Shown: positions 2,597 through 3,073 of the stretch, piece after piece
Numbering within the stretch: position 1 is the first letter of the stretch
Layout: the number at the start of each line of letters is the position of its first letter
Origin: a virus
Lineage: Duplodnaviria; Heunggongvirae; Uroviricota; Caudoviricetes
Virus record (IMG/VR): IMGVR_UViG_2778261247_000002
Location: 1-5,544 of that record
Strand: one strand, 5' to 3'
Length of the DNA stretch: 5,544 bases
The notes under the pieces: generated by a model
What the model saw: the letters and a program-made list of their open reading frames with translations, nothing else
The model's database searches: none
What the model was told of the DNA's origin: nothing
Program-made: the position numbers and the translations under genes

Positions 2597-2601
2597 TATT
2601 A

Positions 2602-2630
2602 TTTACTCATGTTCTAACTGATTTAATATT
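2602..2630 (+). promoter_or_regulatory. Putative sigma70 promoter for the lipoprotein moron (-35 TTTACT 2602-2607, 17-bp spacer, -10 TAATAT 2625-2630)
   Basis: Hexamer matches of 4/6 and 4/6 with ideal 17-bp spacing, in an AT-rich stretch directly upstream of the lipoprotein ORF. An alternative -10, GATAAT, is at 2644-2649. Pattern match only. Confidence 0.3.
2603..2611. repeat. Left copy of 9-bp direct repeat (TTACTCATG) flanking the AT-rich insert
   Basis: TTACTCATG at 2603-2611 versus TAACTCATG at 3023-3031 (8 of 9 identical, core ACTCATG identical). The copies sit at the two compositional boundaries of the insert. Confidence 0.35.
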
Positions 2631-2668
2631 TATATCGAACACTGATAATTATTCTGTTGGTTAGCTAT

Positions 2669-3007
2669 ATGAACAAAACGATTTTATTCTGCACGATTAT
2701 TGCTTTAACAGGATGTAAATCTTTGGATTACGTAAAATCCGGGAAACCTGTAATGGAAGGTAATTCATTAAAAAATGTTGATGAATTGTCAGGCTGCATA
2801 TCCAGACAATGGGCTGGTAATGGAACACCTATAACATCCCTTCCTATTGAGAATGGGGTAAGCCTTTTAGTTCCACAGGCTATGGGTGGGTATGATGTTG
2901 TGCTTGATATCAAAAAAGCAGGAAATGGCAGTAGTTTTACTCTTTATGAACGCGTACCAGCACTAACGCCAAAAATTTTTGCTGATAGTGTTAATGCATG
3001 TAAATAA
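2669..3007 (+). CDS. Small secreted lipoprotein, 112 aa, unknown function (candidate moron / superinfection-exclusion protein)
   Basis: N-terminus MNKTILFCTIIALTG-C is a canonical lipoprotein signal peptide with lipobox LTGC; residues after the Cys are K and S, with no Asp at +2. Two further Cys in the mature part (SGCIS, NACK). The ORF track begins at an upstream TTG (2657), but the ATG at 2669 gives the canonical signal peptide. No strong SD, so the exact start is uncertain. Confidence 0.75.
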   Translation: MNKTILFCTIIALTGCKSLDYVKSGKPVMEGNSLKNVDELSGCISRQWAGNGTPITSLPIENGVSLLVPQAMGGYDVVLDIKKAGNGSSFTLYERVPALTPKIFADSVNACK

Positions 3008-3022
3008 TAGTTAATCCTGCCG

Positions 3023-3031
3023 TAACTCATG
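3023..3031. repeat. Right copy of 9-bp direct repeat (TAACTCATG) flanking the AT-rich insert
   Basis: See the left copy at 2603-2611. This copy sits exactly at the AT-rich to GC-rich transition, immediately before the hairpin. Confidence 0.35.
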
Positions 3032-3059
3032 AGCCGCCTTTTGGGCGGCTTTGTTGTTT
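3032..3059 (+). terminator. Rho-independent terminator-like hairpin (AGCCGCC / loop TTTTG / GGCGGCT) followed by TTGTTGTTT
   Basis: Perfect 7-bp GC-rich inverted repeat at 3032-3038 and 3044-3050 with a 5-nt loop and a T-rich tail at 3051-3059. It lies downstream of the lipoprotein stop and 14 nt upstream of the J start. Confidence 0.6.
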
Positions 3060-3061
3060 AT

Positions 3062-3065
3062 GGAG
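3062..3065 (+). promoter_or_regulatory. Shine-Dalgarno (GGAG) for J, 8-nt spacer to ATG 3074
   Basis: GGAG is read directly at 3062-3065, upstream of the ATG at 3074. Confidence 0.5.
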
Positions 3066-3073
3066 TGTGAGGA

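Follow-up and report, generated by a model that had tools for sequence, protein, structure and literature searches.

Between the tail genes I and J of a lambda-like prophage lies a short stretch of DNA that is a horizontally acquired accessory gene cassette, compositionally foreign to its surroundings and encoding a small lipoprotein. It is contained in the window analysed here, a stretch of 5,544 nucleotides (nt) that makes up positions 1 to 5,544 of the Caudoviricetes record IMGVR_UViG_2778261247_000002, and that is 100% identical to a stretch of the lambda-like prophage next to dusA in Escherichia coli AR_0089. The element is an E. coli member of a protein family that had earlier been marked as a putative tail-module moron, and the slot it occupies is new for that family. 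We would put the probability of this explanation as a whole at about 0.5, including the proposal that the lipoprotein may serve in superinfection exclusion after adsorption, at a conserved lambda-type step of tail-tip penetration or DNA entry; the exclusion function taken by itself is more tentative, and we hold it at rather below even odds. An earlier note, made from the nucleotide sequence, had described the element as a moron with promoter-like hexamers of its own and a terminator hairpin, expressed from the lysogen. That reading is partly supported: it is right on the insertion and its accessory nature and wrong to include the terminator in the cargo, while a promoter of its own and lysogenic expression are unproven.

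An insertion at the I-J junction

The segment from 2597 to 3073 is exactly the gap between gene I, whose stop codon occupies 2594-2596, and gene J, which starts at 3074. This junction measures 477 base pairs (bp) in the window versus 60 bp in the phages 434 (lambda coordinates 15445-15504), mEp460 and PhiR49_1, which amounts to a net addition of about 417 bp. The earlier note had estimated about 420 bp of extra DNA at a place where lambda has a short spacer, and the alignment agrees with both statements, as the lambda-type relatives have an empty 60-bp junction and not the additional 420 bp. Alignment to these empty sites delimits the foreign DNA from about 2597 to about 3025, with the 3' end of the insert at 3008-3025 on the + strand; the right edge is approximate, and homology with the empty sites is regained from about 3026 onwards. 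On the other side, each of the last four codons of gene I including the stop (2582-2596) differs synonymously from the empty-site relatives, and the preceding 44 nt contain only two differences. Thus, the left recombination boundary lies just inside the 3' end of gene I.

The insert also stands out by its composition. A profile of guanine plus cytosine (GC) content gave a fraction of 0.350 over 2597-3025 versus 0.571 upstream and 0.584 downstream, and the lowest value of any other 429-bp segment in the sequence is 0.534. Likewise, GC at third codon positions (GC3) is 0.25 in the open reading frame (ORF) of the insert versus 0.54-0.70 in genes M, L, K, I and J, so that the much lower GC and the AT-rich codons that had been noted earlier are now measured. 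Extra DNA relative to close relatives and a GC content unlike that of the surrounding genes are two of the marks by which a moron is recognized (PMC3594210), and the insert has both.

The encoded lipoprotein

The insert holds a single plausible gene, in keeping with the one small ORF claimed earlier, at 2669-3007 on the + strand. It encodes a lipoprotein precursor of 112 amino acids (aa), which RefSeq labels hypothetical protein WP_157921128.1; a mechanical list of ORFs places the start at a TTG at 2657. The predicted signal peptide MNKTILFCTIIALTG ends directly before Cys16, the predicted site of lipidation, with a Lys at position +2. Residues 1-112 match positions 1-118 of the PHROG 914 profile (phrog_914, function unknown; E-value 1.1e-32), the family to which Gp19 of phage phiKO2 belongs. 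Homologues with 49-63% identity were recovered from Klebsiella, Enterobacter, Kluyvera and Jejubacter, and a profile search of 1.84 billion representative proteins yielded 124 clusters, nearly all with members of 105-125 aa. An alignment of 17 sequences shows a lipobox of the form L-x-G-C, in which G15 and C16 are nearly invariant, and two further cysteines, C43 and C111, that are invariant. Among 59 E. coli-type copies aligned with MAFFT there are 11 synonymous versus 6 nonsynonymous changes, corresponding to a ratio of nonsynonymous to synonymous polymorphism (pN/pS) of about 0.16. Given the conserved lipobox and cysteines, the full-length homologues and this ratio, the gene is real and under purifying selection. 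Intact copies number 56 of the 59; the other three, in E. coli prophages from IMG/VR (L074, L075 and L076), are frameshifted by single-base indels, and the lipoprotein gene is thus occasionally lost by decay.

Under the established sorting rules for lipoproteins, a protein with Lys instead of Asp at position +2 should be passed on by Lol to the outer membrane. The window protein is accordingly predicted to sit on the periplasmic face of that membrane, and the pair C43-C111 suggests a periplasmic disulfide. A structural model computed with AlphaFold2 (AF2) has a predicted local distance difference test (pLDDT) score of 84. Its best viral fold match is an uncharacterised 93-aa protein of the Pseudomonas phage phiAH14a (template modelling scores 0.70/0.83, 24% identity), and its best match among solved structures is the Francisella lipoprotein Flpp3, named in its PDB title as a virulence determinant of that genus. 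The resemblance to Flpp3 (DUF3568) and to the N-terminal domain of BamC is one of fold only: these matches are generic, with 6-12% identity, the protein has no match to Pfam DUF3568, and they carry no functional information. Searches of the protein against Pfam (E-value up to 0.01), NCBIfam and PADLOC returned no family, the single signal being a sub-threshold match of the signal peptide to VirB7; the anti-phage defence models of PADLOC gave 0 families at an E-value up to 1, Pfam gave no functional label for 10 distant relatives, and a profile search of all PDB sequences gave 0 matches.

Several candidate identities for the protein were rejected. A comparison of profiles by hhalign with Cor of phage Fraca gave a probability of 2.6%, with only the signal peptide aligned; membership of the Llp family found no support, as the profile has no PDB matches and Llp is absent among the fold matches listed; and membership of the Bor family is contradicted by the lack of any Pfam family at an E-value up to 0.01. 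A role as an o-spanin was dismissed because the prophage has its own lysis cassette, which is located elsewhere. We infer that a structural or assembly role in the tail can also be discarded, since a lipoprotein exported by Sec and Lol could not join an assembly process in the cytoplasm and since more than 95% of equivalent modules are without the gene.

Relatives in other junctions of the tail module

Relatives of the gene occupy at least three intergenic slots of lambda-, HK97- and N15-type tail modules, namely T-H, K-I and I-J. The I-J slot is used by all 58 complete E. coli-type IMG/VR loci as well as by locus L001; the K-I slot by Klebsiella and Kluyvera prophages and by the phages phiKO2, OS31, Fraca and LMessi; and the T-H slot by the Enterobacter type. 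It is in the last of these that the founding moron is located, namely gene 15 of HK97, which codes for a superinfection exclusion protein (PMC3594210). The family genes are always co-oriented with the tail genes and have a low GC of 0.37-0.43, and a strong hairpin with a T-run lies directly 3' of them, except in the phiKO2 type, where the hairpin is without a clear T-run. The three slots offer a clear example of small cassettes moving between tail-gene junctions. Relatives are scattered in prophage tail modules of Klebsiella, Enterobacter, Kluyvera and Serratia, and the fold match suggests that they may extend to Pseudomonas phages too; five distant members sit on contigs of 0.8-2.3 kb, which offer little context.

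The closest known counterpart is Gp19 of phiKO2, a prophage that Klebsiella oxytoca carries as a linear plasmid (NC_005857); the label 'putative moron gene product' was given to this protein in 2004, and its GenBank record also marks a putative terminator. Gp19 shares with the window protein the PHROG 914 family, a length of about 111 aa, a lipobox and a C-terminal Cys, and its gene too has been added to a lambda-type tail module, in the orientation of the tail genes and ahead of that putative terminator. It differs in lying between K and I behind a 36-nt leader, whereas the window gene lies between I and J behind a 72-nt AT-rich leader. The link between the two proteins is indirect: Gp19 is 49% identical to the Fraca member, which in turn is 27-29% identical to the window protein, and they share the PHROG.

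Individual loci show what else these junctions can hold. On the IMG/VR contig 2836662228_000003 (L077), the K-I slot is occupied at about 2100-6900 by a 4.8-kb island with genes on both strands, which encode Arc-like, Bro-N, KilA-N and Cro/CI-type helix-turn-helix (HTH) proteins, a family member and a 149-aa unknown ORF; the family member follows the gene for the Cro/CI-type regulator. Tail-tip junctions are therefore general cargo hotspots, able to host large regulatory cargo. In Fraca and LMessi, a second, unrelated small lipoprotein ORF (6647-6994 in both L006 and L007; lipobox IVGC, no Pfam match) stands directly upstream of the family member in the K-I slot, giving two lipoprotein genes in tandem, and Fraca carries cor further downstream as well.

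Distribution in E. coli

The cassette was found in 338 of 5426 complete E. coli genomes, so that about 6% of them carry a gene labelled "hypothetical protein". The 4,345 complete genomes with a recognizable I-J junction have 8,775 such junctions, and some 334-350 of these (about 4%), in the 338 genomes, hold the cassette, which agrees with its description as accessory and strain-variable. In a spread sample of 60 records, 5 had the cassette, 52 an empty junction and 3 partial matches, with no other cargo. The insert is missing from all 269 lambda-like phage records with a match to the flanks, and in the 40 such records listed the matching span equals that of the query minus about 390-420 bp. 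A megablast search of the cassette against phage records found nothing, and a tblastn search against them matched only Fraca and LMessi, at about 31% identity. A scan of one genome per species recovered a single locus.

A proposed function in superinfection exclusion

In the mechanism that we envisage, Sec would export the precursor, Cys16 would receive the lipid, and Lol would deliver the protein to the periplasmic side of the outer membrane, where it would fold into a disulfide-stabilised alpha/beta domain of about 96 residues. The gene might be transcribed in the lysogen from a weak promoter in its leader, with the transcript stopped by the hairpin of the junction, a step with less support than the others, and it would almost certainly also be transcribed within the Q-antiterminated late operon. 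Exclusion after adsorption is our guess by analogy with HK97 gp15 and Ltp. Like the window gene, HK97 gene 15 is a small accessory gene between tail genes of a lambda/HK97-type siphophage, and Enterobacter relatives of the window gene sit in the very T-H slot that it uses; its product provides a precedent, in that a moron of the tail operon here prevents phages from entering while the receptor is left unmasked. However, gp15 belongs to another family, is located in the inner membrane and is no lipoprotein. Experiments have shown that gp15 is expressed from the prophage and is active in exclusion, whereas the window protein is known from its sequence. Because the cassette does not co-vary with the receptor-binding end of J, any exclusion would probably take effect once the phage has adsorbed, rather than through masking of the receptor of the phage itself.

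A stronger version of the proposal, which we regard as unlikely, is that the protein would represent a new class of receptor-independent exclusion factor that intercepts a conserved part of incoming lambda-type tail tips, such as gpI once it is ejected, the hydrolase gpK or the tape-measure protein. Interception of the tail tip would explain why the gene occurs in tail-tip modules, often beside gene I, and is indifferent to the end of J. For the Pseudomonas phage phiAH14a, the published gene list contains a 93-aa ORF that immediately precedes an additional gene I and, apart from it, a lipoprotein gene in the K-I interval (PMC4936722). The gene tables of phiAH14a and phiAH14b pair extra gene I copies with a small ORF or a lipoprotein gene outside the tail module, the satellite AH14b included (PMC4936722). 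Gene I and such small envelope proteins may, on this arrangement, be functionally connected. If an exclusion function holds true, the gene would influence which clinically important Enterobacteriaceae can be infected by therapeutic and temperate siphophages, and the few exclusion lipoproteins characterised so far would be joined by one that works in the periplasm and independently of the receptor.

Transcription signals and other points against the proposal

A number of observations weigh against the proposal, of which some concern exclusion and others the presumed independence of the transcription unit. The grounds for exclusion are analogy and position only, and the protein resembles no protein of known function in Pfam, NCBIfam, PADLOC or PDB. 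Furthermore, there are 350 cassette places in the 338 genomes, with up to three per genome (for example in NZ_CP010240, strain C7), and the sampled cassette-positive records have 1-4 lambda-like I-J junctions each. Several cassettes or lambda-like prophages in one cell argue, if weakly, against a strong exclusion of the carrier's own kind.

With respect to transcription, the leader at 2597-2668 (72 nt, + strand, 24% GC) contains sigma-70-like candidates that are weak and of unproven function. The earlier note had pointed to promoter-like hexamers belonging to the cassette; such matches exist, but no site on the + strand of 2597-2668 rose above the threshold of a consensus promoter scan. A relaxed scan found four overlapping candidates with 8/12 matches, namely TTTACT-16/17-TAATAT/AATATT at 2602-2630 and TTTAAT-16-GATAAT at 2622-2649, a count that is also reached by 4% of shuffles of this AT-rich leader. 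In the relatives of the K-I slot, only 32-43 nt with an ordinary Shine-Dalgarno sequence separate the stop codon of K from the start codon; leaders of this length are too short for a self-contained promoter, so that members of the family do not generally have a promoter of their own. Taken together, these sites make a weak case for a promoter of its own, the defining feature of a moron, and do not demonstrate it. Nothing on expression of the lipoprotein gene from the repressed prophage was found in the papers searched, and the gene is not mentioned in the telomere-phage paper or in the LF82 transcriptome paper.

The hairpin also bears on the question of a self-contained unit. An intrinsic-terminator-like structure, GAGCCGCC-TTTT-GGGCGGCTT followed by a T-rich tail, lies at 3031-3060 on the + strand (hairpin 3031-3051), with a 9-bp stem that includes 6 G-C pairs. 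A homologous hairpin with the same downstream sequence (TTTGTYGTTTATGGAG...ATG) is present where 434, mEp460, Ayreon and PhiR49_1 have an empty I-J spacer; compared with these, one stem pair of the window copy has changed from A-T to G-C in a compensatory manner, and a terminator is annotated at this place in the records of 434, Ayreon and phiKO2. Because it occurs at the homologous place in empty spacers, the hairpin is resident in the junction; while the terminator hairpin with its T-rich tail that had been assigned to the cassette does exist, its status as cargo was rejected, and as a resident element it is no evidence for a self-contained transcription unit. It could be a conserved internal terminator, or else a scar or landing site of past cassettes. 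Cassette-free lambda-type phages keep this GC-rich hairpin and T-run in a 60-bp spacer that lies within the late operon. A search of 2400-3300 against Rfam gave only sub-threshold chance matches.

Two other signals were seen at these loci. The sole site of the insert that passed the promoter scan, TTTACA-18-AAAAAT with 9/12 matches, lies on the - strand at 3004-2975, antisense to the lipoprotein gene, as are ORFs at 2697-2828 and 2728-2913; in DNA this rich in AT, the match probably arose by chance. In the T-H cassette of Enterobacter (L008, 7978-7995), an inverted repeat CCTCC...GGAGG just before the start codon would sequester the Shine-Dalgarno sequence, so that translation of that member may be controlled; nothing comparable is present in the window.

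Alternative explanations

An obvious alternative to exclusion after adsorption is that the lipoprotein inactivates the receptor of its own J protein in the manner of Cor (phi80, N15, T1) and Llp (T5), thereby protecting the lysogen and sparing progeny from adsorbing to debris. Like these small phage outer-membrane lipoproteins, which are encoded near the receptor-binding gene (PMC11990801; PMC4936722), the predicted outer-membrane lipoprotein of the window is encoded next to receptor-binding gene J, and the authors of the phiAH14a study likened the K-I lipoprotein of that phage to cor from its closeness to the tail fibre gene alone (PMC4936722). However, among 36 cassette loci with a complete J, one and the same cassette (98-99% identical) stands beside at least four J C-terminal types, which have 17-75% identity over the last 250 aa, compared with 96-99% over the first 800 aa of J. 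Conversely, the same full-length J (93-96% identity) occurs without the cassette in thousands of genomes, so that a given J type is mostly cassette-free, and the J proteins of VT1-Sakai, PPompW and PhiR46_1, which have no cassette, are 94% identical over the C-terminal 249 aa. The cassette is thus not associated with one receptor specificity, and since it adjoins at least four receptor-binding ends, a blocker of its own receptor is improbable. Moreover, the relatives in the T-H slot are far from J, a family member coexists with cor in Fraca, and the mature form of the window protein is larger than Cor and Llp; beyond the signal peptide it has no sequence similarity to Cor or any solved chain, and no Llp is found among the fold matches listed. 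A different alternative is that the gene is a lysogenic-conversion factor for host fitness or virulence, an envelope lipoprotein comparable to lambda Bor/Iss, which confers serum resistance; if so, one more such gene would join the list. Bor is a precedent for a lipoprotein moron carried as accessory cargo by a lambda-type prophage (PMC3594210), the E. coli carriers of the cassette are both commensal and pathogenic strains from humans, poultry, pigs and cattle, and a virulence determinant heads the solved fold matches. Yet that similarity is of the generic kind described above, the protein matches neither Pfam Bor nor any other family, and the gene for Bor lies outside the tail module, close to the lysis genes. 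The sampled members are confined to one type of siphophage tail module and absent from the usual cargo regions, which suggests a phage-related role and leaves a host-fitness function unlikely.

It is also conceivable, though we consider it rather more doubtful, that the gene is not a strict moron but an accessory phage gene expressed late, solely from the Q-antiterminated operon, with a periplasmic role in lytic growth; possible roles are protection of the envelope from the phage's own NlpC/P60 hydrolase K, tuning of lysis, or prevention of progeny loss on debris. The invariable co-orientation with the tail genes fits this view, as do the lack of room for a promoter in the K-I leaders, the absence of a leader site passing the scan in the window, and the terminator hairpins of cassette-free late-operon junctions, which mean that such hairpins do not prove a separate unit. 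On the other hand, the gene is dispensable, as over 95% of tail modules that are otherwise near-identical do without it, and so do all 269 matching phage records, many of them cultured isolates; the 72-nt leader of the window and the 86-nt leader of the T-H slot are AT-rich and could hold promoters; and the L077 member follows a Cro/CI-type regulator within its two-strand island. Finally, the insert could be non-functional AT-rich DNA with a chance ORF. Its lack of functional annotation, its base composition and the three frameshifted copies would agree with this, but full-length homologues across genera retain the lipobox and the cysteines, pN/pS is low and the structural model is confident, so that conservation effectively refutes this last reading, which we regard as extremely improbable. 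Hence an accessory lipoprotein cassette, with a tentative role in exclusion after adsorption, remains the explanation that we prefer.

Tail-gene neighbourhood

The genes around the cassette, all on the + strand, are those of a lambda-like block, and Pfam confirmed the set behind the H-M-L-K-I-J order that had been proposed. The window opens with the 3' end of the tape-measure gene H (1-284, an ORF running to 284), which corresponds to the tape measure protein coding sequence of NZ_CP032265, followed by the tail-tip genes M (281-610; Phage_min_tail, E-value 6.8e-39) and L (610-1308; Phage_tail_L, 3.3e-99). Next come tail-tip gene K (1314-2057), whose product combines JAB/MPN and NlpC/P60 domains (Prok-JAB, NLPC_P60), and tail assembly gene I (1955-2596, with the RefSeq start at 2021; Lambda_tail_I, 9.5e-24). 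Beyond the cassette, the 5' part of the tail-tip and host-specificity gene J (3074-5544) comprises 823 codons with matches to FNIII-A_GpJ, Phage-tail_3, Ig_J and Ig_J_second, and runs off the end of the window. A J gene closely related to that of the window is split by the IS66-family insertion sequence ISEc22 in the E. coli genomes NZ_CP074963 (00_3305) and NZ_CP074742 (RM6927).

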